Part shown: one piece after another, positions 8,126-32,215 of the stretch
Position numbering within the stretch: position 1 is the stretch's first letter
Layout: the number at the start of each line of letters is the position of its first letter
Source: Candidatus Kaiserbacteria bacterium
GTDB taxonomy: Bacteria; Patescibacteriota; Minisyncoccia; Phycocordibacterales; UBA918
Length of the DNA: 64,000 nt
Direction of reading: 5' to 3'
Assembly (NCBI GenBank): GCA_031430855.1
Contig: JANPCG010000006.1
Coordinates: 2,531-66,530, forward strand
Made by a program: the position numbers and the translations under genes
The notes under the pieces: generated by a model
Told to the model about the DNA's origin: nothing
The model's database searches: none
Seen by the model: only the letters and a program-made list of their open reading frames with translations

Positions 8126-10972
8126 ATGCATAAAAAATTTGATTCCACCCAGATTGAAAAGAAATGGCAAGAGCGATGGAAAGAAAGTGGAATCTATACC
8201 GTCGGAGAACGAGACGTAACAAAACCTAAAGAGTATGTCCTGGTTGAATGGCCGTACCCGTCAGGAAACCTCCACATTGGACACTGGTATGCCTTTGCCG
8301 TCCCTGATATCTATGCGCGCTTTAAGCGCATGAAGGGAACCCAGGTCTTATTTCCGATGGGTTTTGACGCCTTTGGACTCCCGGCAGAAAATGCGGCTAT
8401 TAAGCGCAATTTAGATCCTAAGGCGTGGACGAACGACAACATCGCCTACATGCGTGAACAACTCATTTCAATGGGCTGCAGTTTTTCCTGGGACAAAACC
8501 GCCAATTCGACTGATGCTGACTATTACAAATGGACCCAGTGGATGTTCACGCAGTTTTTTGAGCGGGGAATTGCGTATCGTGGTAAGGGAGTGGTTAATT
8601 GGTGTCCGGGATGTAACACAGTGATTGCAAACGAACAGGTACTAACTGACGGAACCTGTGAACGCTCAGGTGATGTGGTAGAGAAGCGAGAAATGCCGCA
8701 ATGGATGCTCAAGATTACAGAGTATGCTGACCGTCTGACTGATGACCTCAATGCGCTTGATTGGCCAGAACATATTAAAGAAGCCCAGCGGCAGTGGATC
8801 GGCCGCAGTCGCGGGGCGAAGATTGATTTTAAGCTTTCAACTGGTGACACTGTTACCGTATTTACTACTCGACCTGACACGTTATTCGGAGCAACATATG
8901 TTGTCCTTGCACCTGAACACCCACTTCTACAAAATGACAAGGTACGAGGCGAGACCTCGAACTTGACGGAGGTTAATAATTATATTACTACTGCGAAGCA
9001 AAAAGATGAACAAGATCGGCTCGATGCCACAAAAGAAAAGACTGGGGTAAAACTCGAAGGGATTACCGCTATTAATCCCGCGAGCGGGGAAGCGATTCCC
9101 GTCTACGTGGCCGACTATGTACTCGGCGGGTATGGCACCGGAGCCATTATGGCCGTACCAGCGCATGATGAACGAGACTATGCCTTTGCAACGAAGTTTG
9201 GGCTACCAATAAAACAAGTAGTTGTGCCGTGTGCTAATGATTCAAAAAACCCACCGCAGTCTGGGTATGAAGAAGTAAAACGAGATACTGTCATCATACA
9301 TCTACGCGACAAGAGTACCGGTAAATTTGCACTCTTAAATTGGCACGGTACTCTCGAAGGAATCACTACAGCAATTATGGGTGGTATTGAAGAAGGGCAA
9401 ACTCCAGAGGAAGCTGCGCTAGCGGAAATAAAAGAAGAAGCTGCTCTAGATAATGTAAAAATCGTTCATTCACTCAAATGGATTACCGCGGCAAAATATT
9501 GCGCCTCACATAAAAAACAAAATCGCTGTGCCCACACCTATACCTTTTTAGGTGAAGTAGAAAATCTCGAACAGCAGGGCTCTATTCCAGAAGCAGAAAA
9601 TTCTCTACATACGTTAGTCTGGGTAGAAAAGACTCAGGTTCTCGCTAAACTTACACCTGATCATCAAAAGCAGGTTTGGGAATTACTCCAAAAGGATACC
9701 GTTTTGACCGGAGCTGGCTATTTAATGAACTCAGGTGAATTTAATGGAATGGATTCAGACGAAGCGAAGGAAAAAATTGTTGCGCAAGTGGGAGGGGAAA
9801 TGACCTCAACCTATCGAATTCGTGATTGGTCAATTGGACGACAGCGATACTGGGGTGTTCCGATTCCAATTGTATATTCACCAGAAGGAGTAGCTCACAT
9901 TGTTCCTAAGGAACATTTGCCGTGGGTACTCCCCGAAGACGTCGATTTTAAACCGACCGGTGTCGCGCCACTCGCTAAAAGTGAAGCGCTAAGGAAACGA
10001 ACTGAGGAAATCTTTGGTGTTGGATGGACACCGGAAGTCGAAACCATGGATACGTTTGTCGATTCATCATGGTATTTCCTACGGTATCTTGATAACGCGA
10101 ATCCTGACTCTCTCTCATCGCTTGAAGCCCAAAAGAACTGGATGCCAATCGATATCTACTTTGGAGGGGCTGAACACACCACAATGCACTTACTCTACTC
10201 GCGCTTCTGGCAAAAGGCACTCTTTGACCTGGGGCTCGTGACTGAAACAGAACCCTATCGTCGACGAATTAACCGTGGACTCATCCTTGGGCCAGACGGA
10301 AACAAAATGAGCAAGAGCAAAGGCAACGTCATCGATCCTGATGCCCAGGTAGCTTTGGTCGGGTCAGACACGGTCAAAATGTACCTCGCCTTTATGGGAC
10401 CATACGAGGGAAGCAACTACCCGTTTGACCTCGGTGGAATTGCTGGTTTGCGTCGTTTCTTGGAGCGTGCGTACGGGCTACGTGATCATATTATCCCGAA
10501 TGAACCACTCACTGTCACCAAGCAACTCCACAAAACCATTGCCAAAGTAAACACTGATATTGTTGAATTTAAGTTCAATACGGCCATTAGTGCCATGATG
10601 ATATTTGTAAATCTCGCCGAAAAGGAAGGGTTAACCGAAGAAACTTACCGAATGTTTACACGACTTTTAGCACCATTTGCCCCGCATATTACTGAAGAAA
10701 TCTGGACTGAATTGGGGGAGACAACATCAATCCACTTAACGGAGTACCCGACGGCAAACCCGGAACTGGCACGCGATACTGAAGTTGTTATTGGAGTGCA
10801 AATTAACGGTAAATTACGAGGAGATATCACACTTAGCCCAAACGCAAGCGAAGCGGAAGCACTCAATATGGTAAAAGAAAATCCTGTTCTCAGGACCAGG
10901 CTAGAGGGAATCACACCGAATAAAGTCATCTACGTGCCCGGGAAAATCATCAACCTCATCCTTCCGACCTAG
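8126..10972 (+). CDS. leuS: Leucyl-tRNA synthetase with a roughly 160-aa Nudix-like insertion
   Basis: HIGH (NLHIGHWYAF) and KMSKS motifs; colinear with bacterial LeuRS except for extra sequence between ...KFGLPIKQVV and GAGYLMNSGEFNG. Confidence 0.95.
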   Translation: MHKKFDSTQIEKKWQERWKESGIYTVGERDVTKPKEYVLVEWPYPSGNLHIGHWYAFAVPDIYARFKRMKGTQVLFPMGFDAFGLPAENAAIKRNLDPKAWTNDNIAYMREQLISMGCSFSWDKTANSTDADYYKWTQWMFTQFFERGIAYRGKGVVNWCPGCNTVIANEQVLTDGTCERSGDVVEKREMPQWMLKITEYADRLTDDLNALDWPEHIKEAQRQWIGRSRGAKIDFKLSTGDTVTVFTTRPDTLFGATYVVLAPEHPLLQNDKVRGETSNLTEVNNYITTAKQKDEQDRLDATKEKTGVKLEGITAINPASGEAIPVYVADYVLGGYGTGAIMAVPAHDERDYAFATKFGLPIKQVVVPCANDSKNPPQSGYEEVKRDTVIIHLRDKSTGKFALLNWHGTLEGITTAIMGGIEEGQTPEEAALAEIKEEAALDNVKIVHSLKWITAAKYCASHKKQNRCAHTYTFLGEVENLEQQGSIPEAENSLHTLVWVEKTQVLAKLTPDHQKQVWELLQKDTVLTGAGYLMNSGEFNGMDSDEAKEKIVAQVGGEMTSTYRIRDWSIGRQRYWGVPIPIVYSPEGVAHIVPKEHLPWVLPEDVDFKPTGVAPLAKSEALRKRTEEIFGVGWTPEVETMDTFVDSSWYFLRYLDNANPDSLSSLEAQKNWMPIDIYFGGAEHTTMHLLYSRFWQKALFDLGLVTETEPYRRRINRGLILGPDGNKMSKSKGNVIDPDAQVALVGSDTVKMYLAFMGPYEGSNYPFDLGGIAGLRRFLERAYGLRDHIIPNEPLTVTKQLHKTIAKVNTDIVEFKFNTAISAMMIFVNLAEKEGLTEETYRMFTRLLAPFAPHITEEIWTELGETTSIHLTEYPTANPELARDTEVVIGVQINGKLRGDITLSPNASEAEALNMVKENPVLRTRLEGITPNKVIYVPGKIINLILPT

Positions 10973-11081: not shown

Positions 11082-12107
11082 ATGATTACGTTTAAACCAA
11101 AACAAGTAACCAAAAAACTTCTCTCTCAACTGCCAGAACGCGCACGTGATGTTCTCATCAAGCGCTACGGTCTTGGAGCTGATAATGAAACCTTCACCCT
11201 TGAAGCCATTGGACAATCATACGGGATCACTCGTGAGCGAGTTCGTCAGATCGAAAACTACGGTATTGCTTCAGTCCAGAAGTCACCTGTCTATGCGGAA
11301 CACGCAGAGTTATTTCTCGAGCTCCAGACTTTAATTCAACAAATGGGAGGTGGCGTCGTTGCTGAACACGTGCTTTTAGATAGTTTGGCGCCTGATGAAG
11401 CCACTCGAAATCATCTCTATTTCCTCCTCGTGGTAGGGGACGCTTTCTACAAAGGCAAGGAAAACCCACTCTATACCCACCGTTGGTTTACGGAAAAGAA
11501 AATTGCTGAAACAGTTGAAAAAGCTTTACGGAACGTTTACGGTACCCTCAATCGCGATGATTTGGTCAGTGAAGCTGAAATCCTCAATCGTTTCCGCACT
11601 GAATTGATTGAAGTGGCTGAAAAGCATGATGACGAGACTTTGAAGCGATGGCTCATGATCTCAAAGCAAATTGCCCAAAACCCACTCGGTGACTGGGGAC
11701 CAAGCGATAGTCCAAACGTGCGCGTGAAGGGAATTCGTGATTACGCATATCTCGCAGTAAAGCGCCATGGTTCACCAATGCACTTCAAAGAAGTATCCGA
11801 ATCAATCAAGGAGCTATTCAAGCATAAGGCACACGTCGCAACTACCCACAACGAACTTATCAAAGATGCCCGTTTTGTCCTCGTTGGTCGAGGTCTCTAC
11901 GCACTCACAGAGTGGGGCTACACGGCAGGTGTTGTCAAAGACGTCCTCCGCGAAATCCTCCAGAACGAAGGCCCCCTCTCACGCGAAGAATTGATTGATA
12001 AGGTACGTAAGGAACGATACGTAAAAGACAACACCATTGTGGTCAATCTCCAAGATACCAATCTCTTCAAGCGGCTCAGTAACGGTACTTACACCATCGC
12101 TGAATAA
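11082..12107 (+). CDS. Sigma-70 region-4-like HTH domain protein (non-canonical)
   Basis: N-terminal RDVLIKRYGL...TLEAIGQSYGITRERVRQIE is a textbook sigma region 4.2 HTH; the rest is unrelated to sigma regions 1-3. Confidence 0.7.
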   Translation: MITFKPKQVTKKLLSQLPERARDVLIKRYGLGADNETFTLEAIGQSYGITRERVRQIENYGIASVQKSPVYAEHAELFLELQTLIQQMGGGVVAEHVLLDSLAPDEATRNHLYFLLVVGDAFYKGKENPLYTHRWFTEKKIAETVEKALRNVYGTLNRDDLVSEAEILNRFRTELIEVAEKHDDETLKRWLMISKQIAQNPLGDWGPSDSPNVRVKGIRDYAYLAVKRHGSPMHFKEVSESIKELFKHKAHVATTHNELIKDARFVLVGRGLYALTEWGYTAGVVKDVLREILQNEGPLSREELIDKVRKERYVKDNTIVVNLQDTNLFKRLSNGTYTIAE

Positions 12108-29696: not shown

Positions 29697-30107
29697 ATGG
29701 CAACAAAAACACCTGGACGCTATATTGAAGCAATTGGTCGCCGTAAAACAGCCACTGCACGAGTTCGTCTGACACCAGCCTCAGAAACGACTATCATGGT
29801 CAACGATAAGAAACTCGAAGAATACTTTCCACACCTCGCCCTTCATAAAGATGTACACTCAGTGCTTGATACGAAAGATGCCGGTATCGAAACCTACACC
29901 ATTACCGCCAAAGTTCTCGGTGGAGGACTCTCTTCCCAAGCCGAAGCAATCCGTCTCGGTATTGCCCGCGCACTCGTAAAGGAGAAAGAGGCTCGCCGCG
30001 TAACCCTAAAGAAAGCGGGGTTCCTCAAACGAGATCCACGCTCAGTAGAACGTAAGAAGTTTGGATTACTGAAAGCTCGCAAGCGACCTGCCTGGTCAAA
30101 GCGATAG
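29697..30107 (+). CDS. rpsI: Ribosomal protein S9
   Basis: C-terminal GGGLSSQAEAIRLGIARAL...KKFGLLKARKRPAWSKR. Confidence 0.95.
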   Translation: MATKTPGRYIEAIGRRKTATARVRLTPASETTIMVNDKKLEEYFPHLALHKDVHSVLDTKDAGIETYTITAKVLGGGLSSQAEAIRLGIARALVKEKEARRVTLKKAGFLKRDPRSVERKKFGLLKARKRPAWSKR

Positions 30108-30135
30108 TAGTTGGCGCATACCTTTGTCGCACTAC

Positions 30136-30180
30136 GAAAAAGACTCTTCCTGGACATTTGTCCCGGTCGAGTCTTTTTTC
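30136..30180 (+). terminator. intrinsic terminator (aaagactc...gagtcttttttc)
   Basis: Hairpin plus T6 after rpsI. Confidence 0.6.
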
Positions 30181-30184
30181 TTGT

Positions 30185-30550
30185 TTCTTACAGAAACTGT
30201 CCACTCATTGGTTAGTTTATTTCGCTTCACTCATAAACTAACACAATGAGTCTTGCGAAGTGACATTAGGTCACTTCTCACTCCTTGCTCTGCATCTTAT
30301 TTGTAACGCTTTGAAACCGCAGCGATACGAATCGCCCCTTTCCTGGGGCGATGAGGCAGCGAGGTGGGCCCGCGAGTACTTACTAGAATAAGAGTGCAGC
30401 GAATTATTATAGTTAGTAACTCGTGGGGAAGCGATAAATTTTGCCTTACTCTCCATTCCATTTATATCACTTCCTACTTACGCGATAAAAAACTCCTTTA
30501 GGATTTTTTTGTAACATTTTGAATATAAAATTTTCTTTTCTCATTACAAG
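30185..30550. ncRNA. candidate structured non-coding RNA region (class undetermined)
   Basis: About 370 nt with no credible ORF between two terminators. Multiple GC stems, e.g. gaagtgac-atta-gtcacttc, cgcccc-tttcct-ggggcg, gcgat-acga-atcgc. Confidence 0.25.
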
Positions 30551-30554
30551 AAAA

Positions 30555-30583
30555 AGGCCCCTCCAATCATGGAGGGGCCTACT
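30555..30583 (-). terminator. intrinsic terminator of the aspartokinase gene (minus strand: aggcccctcc-atgatt-ggaggggcct plus tttttc)
   Basis: Seen directly. Confidence 0.6.
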
Positions 30584-30584
30584 C

Positions 30585-31358
30585 TTATGTTCTCGTTGCT
30601 CCAATAAACGTACTTTGTGAATTGGGAGCAAAAGTGTTTCGGATCTGTACCCGGACACCAGCCTGGGACACAGGAGCTATGGCCTCAGGATGAAAGACTG
30701 TCGCTCCGGTCAGAGACAACATTTTTGCTTCACGATAGGTGAGATAGGGAAGATGTCTGGCTTCTCTAAATTTGCGCGGGTCTGCGGTATACACACCCGA
30801 AACATCAGTCCAGTTTTCGTAGAGATCTGCTCCTATCTGTGCTGCCACAAGTGCACCAGAGAGGTCAGAGCCACCTCGAGGAAATAATTCAATCCCACCT
30901 GCATAAGCAGCGCCATAGAATCCCGGAATCACCACCCGTTCATGAGGCTTCCATACGCAAGATACAGCCATTACTGCTCCATATTGATTGAGCGTAAAAA
31001 CCCGTCGTGCATCCACAAACTTCCAATCGAGAAACTTGGCGAGGATATACGCACTCATATACTCACCGAATGCAACACGCGACTTTACTGACGAGCGGGA
31101 AATCCATGAGAGCATACCTGATAACTCATTTGTAGAGACACCAAGATCAGCCATGATCTCCTCGAAGCGCTTACCTACTGCCTCAAGATCATTAATCAAA
31201 AGCAGGTCAGTAACTTTGATTGGATACCCTTCAGACACCCCAGGCGCTGAAACAACCGCCACTTTACGACGTGAGTCCTGCAGCAGAATATCTGCTACAA
31301 GCCTGATTGATTTGGCGTCAGCCATTGATGTTCCGCCAAATTTTGTCACAATCGTCAT
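30585..31358 (-). CDS. ask: Aspartokinase catalytic domain only (no ACT regulatory domains)
   Basis: IVTKFGGTSMADAKSI, AVVSAPG and GGSDLSGALVAAQIGADLYENWTDVSGVYTADPR align with AK catalytic motifs. Start ATG 31358 has an agggag SD. The extra 29 codons of the ORF-track start (31445) come from the leader hairpin. Confidence 0.8.
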   Translation of the reverse strand: MTIVTKFGGTSMADAKSIRLVADILLQDSRRKVAVVSAPGVSEGYPIKVTDLLLINDLEAVGKRFEEIMADLGVSTNELSGMLSWISRSSVKSRVAFGEYMSAYILAKFLDWKFVDARRVFTLNQYGAVMAVSCVWKPHERVVIPGFYGAAYAGGIELFPRGGSDLSGALVAAQIGADLYENWTDVSGVYTADPRKFREARHLPYLTYREAKMLSLTGATVFHPEAIAPVSQAGVRVQIRNTFAPNSQSTFIGATRT

Positions 31359-31376
31359 CTTCGTCTCCCTGAAAAA

Positions 31377-31413
31377 GAACAAACCACCAGCCTTCTTGGC
31401 TGGTGGTTTGTTC
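31377..31413 (-). terminator. 16-bp perfect hairpin plus UUUUUC located 18 nt upstream of the ask start codon (leader attenuator)
   Basis: gaacaaaccaccagcc-ttctt-ggctggtggtttgttc. An upstream near-copy of one arm lies at 31439-31454. Confidence 0.6.
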
Positions 31414-31580
31414 TTTGTTTTGACACTAGTATGACAACGAACCAAACACCAGACAAGAAAGCCCGGTTTGCTTGGTAGTAGTTGTCATTACAAAATACAT
31501 GAAATATGTATAACAAACGAATTCGTAGTTGTAAAGTATTTACACGAATAAGCACGACGAGCGGATTTAATCTGGATTTT

Positions 31581-31609
31581 GACACGACCTCCTTTTGCAG
31601 TTATAATGG
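31581..31609 (+). promoter_or_regulatory. consensus sigma-70 promoter TTGACA-17-TATAAT for grpE-dnaK-dnaJ
   Basis: Perfect -35 and -10 hexamers; the -10 ends 6 nt before the grpE ATG. Confidence 0.6.
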
Positions 31610-31615
31610 TCTGGT

Positions 31616-32215
31616 ATGGTGAATATAAACAACGAAGACGAGACAAATGAAGATATTGAAACCATTGATGACGATACTGATACGACTGAAATGGAATTAG
31701 AAGACGCCGAAGAAATTACTGGTGATAAATTAAAATCCCTCCGCAGTAAACTTAAAGAAGCGGAAACAAAAGCCCGTGACCTCCACGAAGAATTGCAGCG
31801 GAACAAAGCGGACTTTTTAAACGCCCGCAAACGACTTGAGGAAGAGCGTCTCCGCGATCGAGAACGAGCAGCCGTTATGCACGTTGAAAAACTGCTACCA
31901 CTTTGTGATAGTTTCTTTCTCGCCATGCAGGATAAAAATGCTATCGATAGCAGTGATCCGAAGTGGCGACGAGGTATTGAAGGAACATACGCACAATTAC
32001 GGGGCATCATGGATTCGTATGGCATTACTGCCTTTGACCCCACTGGCGAGGAATTTGACCCAACACGACACGAAGCTCTTACGATGATACCAGTGAGCGA
32101 TGAGAGTAATCATAATCGGATTATATCGGTTATTCAGCAGGGCTATACACAGAAACGCGGTGACGTGATTGAACTAATCAGACCAGCTCGAGTGACCGTT
32201 GGAGAACTTGGATAA
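31616..32215 (+). CDS. grpE: Nucleotide exchange factor GrpE
   Basis: GrpE coiled coil plus C-terminal beta domain ([25 protein letters not shown]). Confidence 0.9.

Follow-up and report, generated by a model that had tools for sequence, protein, structure and literature searches.

In enterobacteria, the thrL leader carries a Thr-codon-rich open reading frame (ORF) that also contains Ile codons, and its terminator lies just before thrA, the gene for aspartokinase-homoserine dehydrogenase I (AK-HSD I). The trpL leader is built of four regions, with the regulatory codons in region 1, a ribosome at the stop codon that blocks region 2, a terminator that is the most stable helix, and an outcome that is decided kinetically. 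The lysine riboswitch (L-box) likewise controls aspartokinase in cis by means of a terminator, with lysine sensed directly by an aptamer of ~180 nucleotides (nt). Leaderless leader-peptide attenuators have been described in Actinobacteria, namely that of Corynebacterium glutamicum ilvBNC (PMC11857589) and the poly-Cys leaderless small ORFs of mycobacteria (bioRxiv 10.1101/834739). In a 2005 survey of Actinobacteria, no conserved RNA element was found in front of threonine operons (PMC1262725), and a 2010 paper gave Proteobacteria and Actinobacteria as the only groups with known leader-peptide systems, to which it added a case in Firmicutes (PMC2965389). Here, we report a leader in front of a short aspartokinase gene (ask) of a Candidatus Kaiserbacteria bacterium (Patescibacteriota; GenBank assembly GCA_031430855.1, contig JANPCG010000006.1, positions 2,531 to 66,530). 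The leader is very probably a ribosome-mediated transcription attenuator that senses the supply of threonyl-tRNA and controls a monocistronic ask without ACT domains. The window is the whole stretch that was analyzed (64,000 nt, or 64 kb); coordinates are window positions, and all features of the leader and of ask lie on the minus strand.

The leader was compared across 12 distinct ask loci (Ask identity to the window protein, 43 to 100%), to which counts of leaders refer unless stated otherwise. The layout was the same in 12 of 12: a promoter, an ORF with a run of Thr codons, a 1:2 hairpin, a 2:3 antiterminator, a 3:4 terminator, and a Shine-Dalgarno sequence (SD) followed by ATG. In relatives with Ask proteins 54 to 66% identical to that of the window, the intergenic DNA has otherwise diverged, the hairpin is almost unchanged, and the small ORF is in frame. 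Region 1 (31461 to 31491, from minimum free energy [MFE] folds) is the 5′ strand of the 1:2 anti-antiterminator and holds the Thr codons. Region 2 (31429 to 31459, from complementarity and covariation) supplies the 3′ strand of the 1:2 hairpin (31454-31429) and the 5′ strand of the 2:3 helix (31459-31434). Region 3 (31393 to 31418), the terminator 5′ arm and loop, pairs with either region 2 or region 4, and region 4 (31371 to 31392) consists of the terminator 3′ arm, GGCUGGUGGUUUGUUCUUU, and UUC, with the U-rich tail UUUGUUCUUUUU. Nearly every nucleotide of this ~130-nt leader is used by three mutually exclusive helices.

The leader ORF (31426 to 31500) has 24 codons plus TAG, encodes the predicted peptide MYFVMTTTTKQTGLSCLVFGSLSY, and is conserved, with 21 to 25 codons in the same frame, in all 12 leaders. 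Its regulatory codons (31465 to 31485) are ACA ACU ACU ACC (Thr, four times), AAG (Lys), CAA, and ACC (Thr), and the four consecutive Thr codons (31485-31474) lie in the 5′ strand of the anti-antiterminator hairpin. Across the leaders, the run comprises 2 to 5 consecutive Thr codons (3 to 7 Thr in total) and is followed by Lys, giving the motifs TTTTKQT, KTTTKQT, TTTTTMKQT, KTTKITK, TTTKKQS, NTTITKQ, ITTTKQ, SITTKRT, and TTTKKQTT. Changes in the Thr codons are confined to the third position (ACA, 20; ACC, 23; ACT, 6; ACG, 3), and Thr makes up 18.9% of leader residues, compared with 7.3% in the proteins of the window. The peptides at the other 11 loci are MHLMKTTTKQTRLSCLVLRSLLS, MHFVMTTTTKQTGLSRLVLRSLL, MHFMKTTTKQTWLSCLVFRSLLS, MNFTHTTTTKQTRTYCLVFGSLSV, MHYCTTTTTMKQTGLSCLVIGSLL, MSFVRMQSMKTTKITKRLVAWFLVS, MFRLMTTTKKQSGFAVRFLAC, MHRMNTTITKQRALVAWFLVC, MYRMSITTTKQASLVAWFLVC, MHRHTNIVSITTKRTSFVAWFLYC, and MNRIMMTTTKKQTTLVAWSLVC. 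No comparable ORF was found in the other intergenic regions of the window. Lys and Ile were considered as cosignals and rejected; although the Thr run always leads into an AAG codon and 6 of the 12 leaders contain Ile, neither residue is enriched over background, and we therefore claim Thr alone. Thr had been named, with Lys and Met, in an initial annotation of this DNA, made from the letters alone, as a signal to be expected for an aspartokinase.

The hairpin that this annotation had placed before ask is real, a perfect stem of 19 bp rather than the 16 bp first counted (31374-31392 paired with 31398-31416, 5-nt loop). The longer stem is followed by UUC and ends 15 nt before the ask ATG (31358); the UUUUUC tail and the 18-nt distance given earlier are correct for the 16-bp stem. 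A consensus terminator scan of the window missed this hairpin because the stem takes up three U residues. The 141-nt region folded at −64.1 kcal/mol (z = −7.1), and none of 200 shuffles was equally stable. On its own, the terminator hairpin reaches −33.2 kcal/mol in the window and −21.8 to −35.4 kcal/mol across the leaders, in which it is the most stable helix; kinetics must therefore decide the outcome, as they do in the trp attenuator. The near-copy of one terminator arm reported at 31439-31454 was also borne out (13 of 16 positions identical) and lies in region 2. Its count in the window (5 matches at ≤3 mismatches, 0.57 expected) is on its own only suggestive. The antiterminator pairing that had been proposed for it extends over 29 nt at 83% complementarity to the terminator 5′ arm and loop (31434-31462 with 31390-31418). 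The three elements first described correspond to regions 2, 3, and 4, and the fourth, region 1 with its Thr codons, had been missed.

Comparison of orthologous leaders, which the initial annotation had suggested as a check, brought out conserved structure and covariation, the latter counted on an alignment of 11 sequences and 134 columns (A2). In the antiterminator (2:3, 24 pairs), 88.6% of cells were paired, compared with 37 to 53% when the partner was slid by 1 to 3 columns, and 10 pairs had double changes. In the terminator (3:4, 19 pairs), 96.1% of cells were paired and 7 pairs had double changes. For neither helix did any of 500 shuffles reach the observed values, although the 11 to 12 sequences are related and such shuffle statistics overstate their independence. 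The slid controls and the independent double changes make a strong case for covariation. Four columns of the terminator loop (110-113) covary with upstream columns 36-39, in the combinations AAGAA/UUCUU, GAGAA/UUCUC, AGUAA/UUACU, GAUAA/UUGUC, AACGA/UCGUU, and GACGA/UCGUC. Termination does not require the loop to pair with anything, so selection acts on the alternative helix itself.

These data bear on the possibility that the ORF is a gene for a small hydrophobic protein with a function, followed by a terminator of its own, in which case ask expression would depend on constitutive, leaky read-through and the Thr codons would sense nothing. The C-terminal half of the peptide (LSCLVFGSL or LVAWFLVC) is indeed conserved and hydrophobic, and trans-acting leader peptides such as peTrpL are known (PMC7298713). 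The nucleotides encoding this half, however, form region 2 and covary with region 3 and the terminator loop, which explains the conservation, and a plain gene terminator has no use for a covarying helix that destroys it. The Thr run also falls exactly in region 1, and a function in trans would add to attenuation rather than replace it. We regard the small-protein explanation as highly unlikely.

Unconstrained folds of all leaders gave two hairpins, 1:2 and the 3:4 terminator. In the 1:2 hairpin, the 3′ part of the ORF is paired with the Thr codons and with the ACCAAGCA that comes after them; this hairpin is present in the MFE structure of 12 of 12 leaders (−16.5 to −30.9 kcal/mol; z, −1.2 to −6.1), and the leader-ORF RNA of the window folded at −28.6 kcal/mol (z = −6.1). 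A stalled ribosome was modeled in 11 leaders by masking its footprint at the Thr codons and cutting the RNA after the terminator loop. The masked RNAs formed the 2:3 helix in 11 of 11 (−17 to −27 kcal/mol), with pairing that reached into the terminator loop, whereas unmasked RNAs folded as 1:2 plus terminator. In all leaders the stop codon lies ~9 to 25 nt before the terminator stem, within or just past region 2.

The 5′ strand of the 1:2 hairpin contains ACCAAGCAG, which is nearly invariant and could be taken as a sign of a trans-acting factor. In such a scheme, a protein of the TRAP, PyrR, or LicT type, or uncharged tRNA as in a T-box, would stabilize 2:3 or 1:2 and translation would be irrelevant. 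The invariant ACC-AAG-CAG nevertheless reads Thr-Lys-Gln in the conserved frame, and the leaders contain no T-box match, no specifier-loop or T-box motif, and no repeated protein-binding triplets. Nor is there a conserved neighboring regulator gene, as the neighbors of ask vary between subgroups (grpE and rpsI in one, nucleoside triphosphate [NTP]-transferase and LAGLIDADG genes in the other). The chance that a trans factor accounts for the leader is accordingly very slim.

A putative promoter precedes the leader ORF. The −35 box TTTACA (31530 to 31535, read from the sequence) is separated by a 17-nt spacer from an extended −10 element, TGtTATACA (31507 to 31515), whose hexamer (31512-31507) ends 6 nt before the leader ATG at 31500. 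All 12 leaders have a −35 box (TTGACA, TTTGCA, or TTTACA), a 16- to 18-nt spacer, a −10 box, and 6 to 8 nt before the leader ATG. From the 6-nt spacing, a leaderless transcript is predicted, probably starting at or next to the A of this ATG. Between the terminator stem and the ask ATG, ~15 nt hold the SD and leave no space for a separate ask promoter, so that ask would be expressed by read-through only. The SD of ask (GGGAGA, 31364 to 31369, read from the sequence) is, as a purine-rich motif, present at this position in all orthologues, as expected of an internal cistron; most first genes of the window lack one.

In another explanation, the hairpin would act mainly at a different level, as a 5′ stabilizer of an mRNA started at an internal promoter (~31421) or as a translational repressor through a CUCC anti-SD. 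A weak promoter-like site, TTGTCT-17-TGtCATACT, does lie at 31456-31428, and in most MFE folds the SD is paired with a C/U-rich stretch immediately 5′ of the stem. As the main start, the internal promoter was rejected, since it is not conserved in the orthologues. For most leaders, the anti-SD:SD duplex did not stand out from shuffles of matched composition (z about −0.5 to −1.5), and neither stabilization nor SD masking accounts for the covariation of 2:3 or for the Thr ORF. We consider these roles extremely unlikely as the explanation of the leader. The pairing itself joins 31419-31424 to 31364-31369 across the base of the hairpin (CUCC, CCUC, or UCCUC in most orthologues), and SD masking could form a secondary layer over attenuation.

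No Rfam family reached its gathering score in the 64-kb window. Over 31200-31750, neither Lysine (RF00168), SAM, T-box (RF00230), nor Thr_leader (RF00506) appeared even at E ≤ 10, in keeping with the earlier remark that no T-box or L-box is evident, and the matches in this interval were solely spurious microRNA and small-RNA hairpin models far below the gathering score. These results, with the structure of the leader, bear on whether a metabolite-binding riboswitch or other ligand-sensing RNA, of a known or new class, drives the same terminator and antiterminator while the small ORF is incidental. Riboswitches share the terminator/antiterminator architecture, and the lysC/ask genes of Firmicutes and Proteobacteria often carry lysine riboswitches. 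Here, however, amino acid riboswitch, T-box, and leader families are absent as stated, and the ~85 nt of RNA upstream of the terminator are nearly all taken up by 1:2, with no conserved multihelix junction or unpaired core. Moreover, a riboswitch would need neither the conserved ORF and its frame nor a Thr run with variation in the third position only, nor the −10-to-ATG spacing found in 12 of 12 leaders. The riboswitch explanation thus retains only the faintest probability. Of the two architectures proposed in the initial annotation, riboswitch or attenuator, the comparative evidence favors a transcription attenuator, and no Rfam match speaks for a ligand-controlled riboswitch. The sensor, then left open, would be the leader peptide with its Thr run; the leader ORF and the promoter lie partly beyond the stretch first annotated, which they extend to 31535.

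A covariance model built from A2 gave full-length matches (89 to 122 bits) solely upstream of short ask genes, and a locus outside the training set (L103) was matched at 98.7 bits. The model found no second copy in the 64-kb window. When contigs were searched with the Ask protein, all matches were full-length Asks that have ACT domains (~40 to 44% identity; Firmicutes and other phyla), and full-length-ask loci were used as a negative control, not for leader comparison. In 80 such loci of other phyla the model found nothing comparable, and none of the 20 that were checked had a known riboswitch before ask. An exact-pattern scan of metagenomes for the terminator recovered three contigs only, all of them ask leaders already in the set. 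The matches of the model and of the metagenome scan are confined to ask leaders, which sets the element apart from both dispersed palindromic repeats and generic terminators. A CIRCE/HrcA operator was rejected as the identity of the palindrome, as there is no CIRCE anywhere in the window.

From the sequence elements, their conservation and geometry, and the covariation of both alternative helices, we infer where transcription starts, that the leader ORF is translated, how the attenuator responds to Thr, and what physiological role it plays, as follows. Transcription would start at the A of ATG 31500 or right beside it, and on the resulting leaderless mRNA a ribosome would translate the 24-codon ORF. 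When charged Thr-tRNA is scarce, the ribosome would stall on ACA-ACU-ACU-ACC (31485-31474) and mask region 1, so that region 2 (31459-31434) could pair with the emerging region 3 (31418-31393); with 2:3 formed, no terminator would arise and RNA polymerase would read into ask. When Thr-tRNA is plentiful, the ribosome would reach the TAG (31428-31426), 9 nt before the terminator stem, and cover the 3′ half of region 2; behind it, region 1 would re-pair with the remainder. The 19-bp 3:4 terminator would then form, and transcription would end in the U-rich tail, upstream of ask. If the leader were not translated at all, 1:2 and 3:4 would both form, and termination would result as well.

Like thrL (RF00506), the leader has a short Thr-rich ORF, mutually exclusive 1:2, 2:3, and 3:4 helices, and a terminator just before an aspartokinase gene; in both, low Thr-tRNA would lead to read-through, and Ile codons occur in some of the leaders described here, as they do in thrL. 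Unlike thrL, however, it shows neither sequence nor structure homology (no RF00506 match at E ≤ 10), its run is shorter (2 to 5 consecutive Thr) and always followed by Lys-Gln or Lys-Arg, and its mRNA is apparently leaderless, without an SD. It is found in a Patescibacteria lineage rather than in Proteobacteria, and it regulates a single ACT-less kinase rather than a thrABC operon. With the actinobacterial attenuators it would share a regulatory short ORF at or next to the transcription start, a three-hairpin attenuator, and runs of amino acid-specific codons, whereas the amino acids there are Ile/Val/Leu, Cys, or Trp, and the target genes and phylum differ. The four-region architecture, the regulatory codons in region 1, and a stop codon placed for a block of region 2 recall E. 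coli trpL, from which the leader differs in that the trp leader is SD dependent, has two Trp codons, and is unrelated in sequence. As with the lysine riboswitch (RF00168) of lysC/ask, a pathway end product would control aspartokinase in cis through a terminator; the leader has no such aptamer, and its sensor would be the translating ribosome.

The regulated gene, ask (30585 to 31358), encodes 257 amino acids (aa), not the 258 given by the initial annotation. The sole Pfam match of the protein is AA_kinase (residues 1-241; E = 7.6e−32), and only the first ~290 of ~450 positions of the NCBIfam aspartate kinase models align to it. The match to NF006540 (1.4e−61) is under the full-length cutoff because the protein is truncated. 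Its best relative in the PDB is the Clostridium aspartokinase 3tvi (446 residues; 2e−47; residues 5-276 of 3tvi aligned). Pfam gave no match to ACT domains in Ask, whose C terminus corresponds to about residue 280 of the 446 in 3tvi. By these three lines of comparison, Ask is an aspartokinase catalytic domain without ACT domains, as first annotated, and by homology it is predicted to have aspartate kinase activity (EC 2.7.2.4). The truncation is common to ~25 protein clusters (253 to 261 aa). An alternative ask start at 31445, mentioned earlier as an ATG, is a TTG; the start at 31358 is conserved with its SD, and the extension is not conserved. ACT domains have an allosteric role in aspartokinases, which underlies the presumed loss of end-product inhibition here. 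Because Ask has no ACT regulatory domains, the attenuator is probably its main feedback control and would replace the allosteric feedback lost with them.

Several points weigh against attenuation by Thr-tRNA, in addition to the relatedness of the leaders compared. The register of 1:2 differs between the two leader subgroups, so that this hairpin is supported by stability in each sequence and not by covariation. The Thr run is short next to that of E. coli thrL, which has 8 Thr among its 21 codons, and transcription could also begin at the weak site at 31456-31428, immediately ahead of the hairpin. A search of 30 proteins of the 64-kb window for asd, hom, thrB, thrC, and dap products found none, and a link between Ask and Thr synthesis in the host is hypothetical. 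CPR (candidate phyla radiation) bacteria are generally regarded as lacking most amino acid biosynthesis. It is conceivable, if rather unlikely, that an orphan ACT-less aspartokinase under a Thr-tRNA attenuator on a leaderless mRNA serves a purpose beyond feedback on Thr synthesis. If the pathway is truly absent from the genome, ask might be a starvation-triggered source of aspartyl-phosphate for a noncanonical purpose; alternatively, the abundant ~130-nt attenuated RNA or the leader peptide might function in trans, like rnTrpL/peTrpL.

On the plus strand of the window, rpoA-rplQ-rplM-rpsI ends at 30107. Among named organisms, RpoA is closest to Patescibacteria/Parcubacteria (Ca. Kaiserbacteria, 82% identity). 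On the minus strand after rpsI lies ask, followed by a 257-nt spacer and by the plus-strand genes grpE-dnaK-dnaJ from 31616, which agrees with the divergent intergenic region first noted. The ask gene is the sole amino acid biosynthesis gene of the 64-kb window. An intrinsic terminator (30555 to 30580; 11-bp stem with 8 GC pairs, followed by TTTTTCTTG) closes the monocistronic ask transcript. Apart from this terminator, the 478-nt spacer between the convergent rpsI and ask (30108-30584) has no ORF of >63 aa and no Rfam match. In relatives, this spacer measures ~80 to 480 nt, and gene callers put unannotated ORFs of 74 to 242 aa in some of them. In contig JAYTDW010000006.1 (GCA_043735715.1), identity to the window is complete from dnaJ to the end of ask and over the next 414 nt; from ~63 nt past the rpsI stop (window ~30170) the two diverge completely, and the contig has, instead of rpsI-rplM, a 371-aa ORF and then its end (locus L001, 4189-5590). 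This divergence would reflect an insertion or rearrangement specific to the strain, or else a break in the assembly.

The grpE promoter (plus strand, 31579-31616) is a perfect TTGACA-17-TATAAT located 8 nt before the ATG, a distance from which a leaderless or nearly leaderless mRNA is predicted, and it is conserved in relatives. Hexamers resembling a −10 box (TACAAT, TATACT, TATAAT, and TAGAAT) stand 6 to 9 nt before the start, without an SD, at many first genes of the window (e.g., 12181, 24645, 36084, 42846, 49751, 51302, and 52134), and an SD was found at few genes only (ask, 40487, 4671, and 61698). Judging from these spacings, leaderless mRNAs seem to be common in the host organism.

Elsewhere in the window, a leucyl-tRNA synthetase (8126-10972, plus strand, 948 aa) has a NUDIX domain (residues 388-515; E = 4e−9) just after the editing domain. 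A 341-aa protein (11082-12107, plus strand) has an N-terminal Sigma70 region 4 and a weak HARE-HTH match (whole-protein E = 5e−7, no single stretch over threshold), a combination that would be unusual. At least seven genes for aminoacyl-tRNA synthetases also lie in the window, as does part of a cell wall cluster (D-Ala-D-Ala carboxypeptidase, mraY-like, ftsW, and murG-like), and no tRNA or rRNA gene was found in its 64 kb.

The mechanism proposed for the ask leader is a textbook one, which we did not find described for this phylum or for this gene architecture; in the literature on CPR/Patescibacteria, no leader-peptide attenuator and no relevant work on aspartokinase were found. The leader adds a well-supported cis-regulatory RNA to Patescibacteria/CPR, a group with very few known regulatory mechanisms, and the covariance model, together with the 12 leader sequences and their two covarying alternative helices, provides the basis for a new Rfam-type family. 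As a Thr-responsive design it would be compact (~145 nt), and such an attenuator would imply tight coupling of transcription and translation from a leaderless 5′ AUG. It may also be an example of transcriptional attenuation taking over from allosteric feedback after loss of the regulatory domain. Expression of an ACT-less aspartokinase that follows Thr-tRNA charging would argue that at least one step of the aspartate pathway is both kept and regulated in such reduced genomes.

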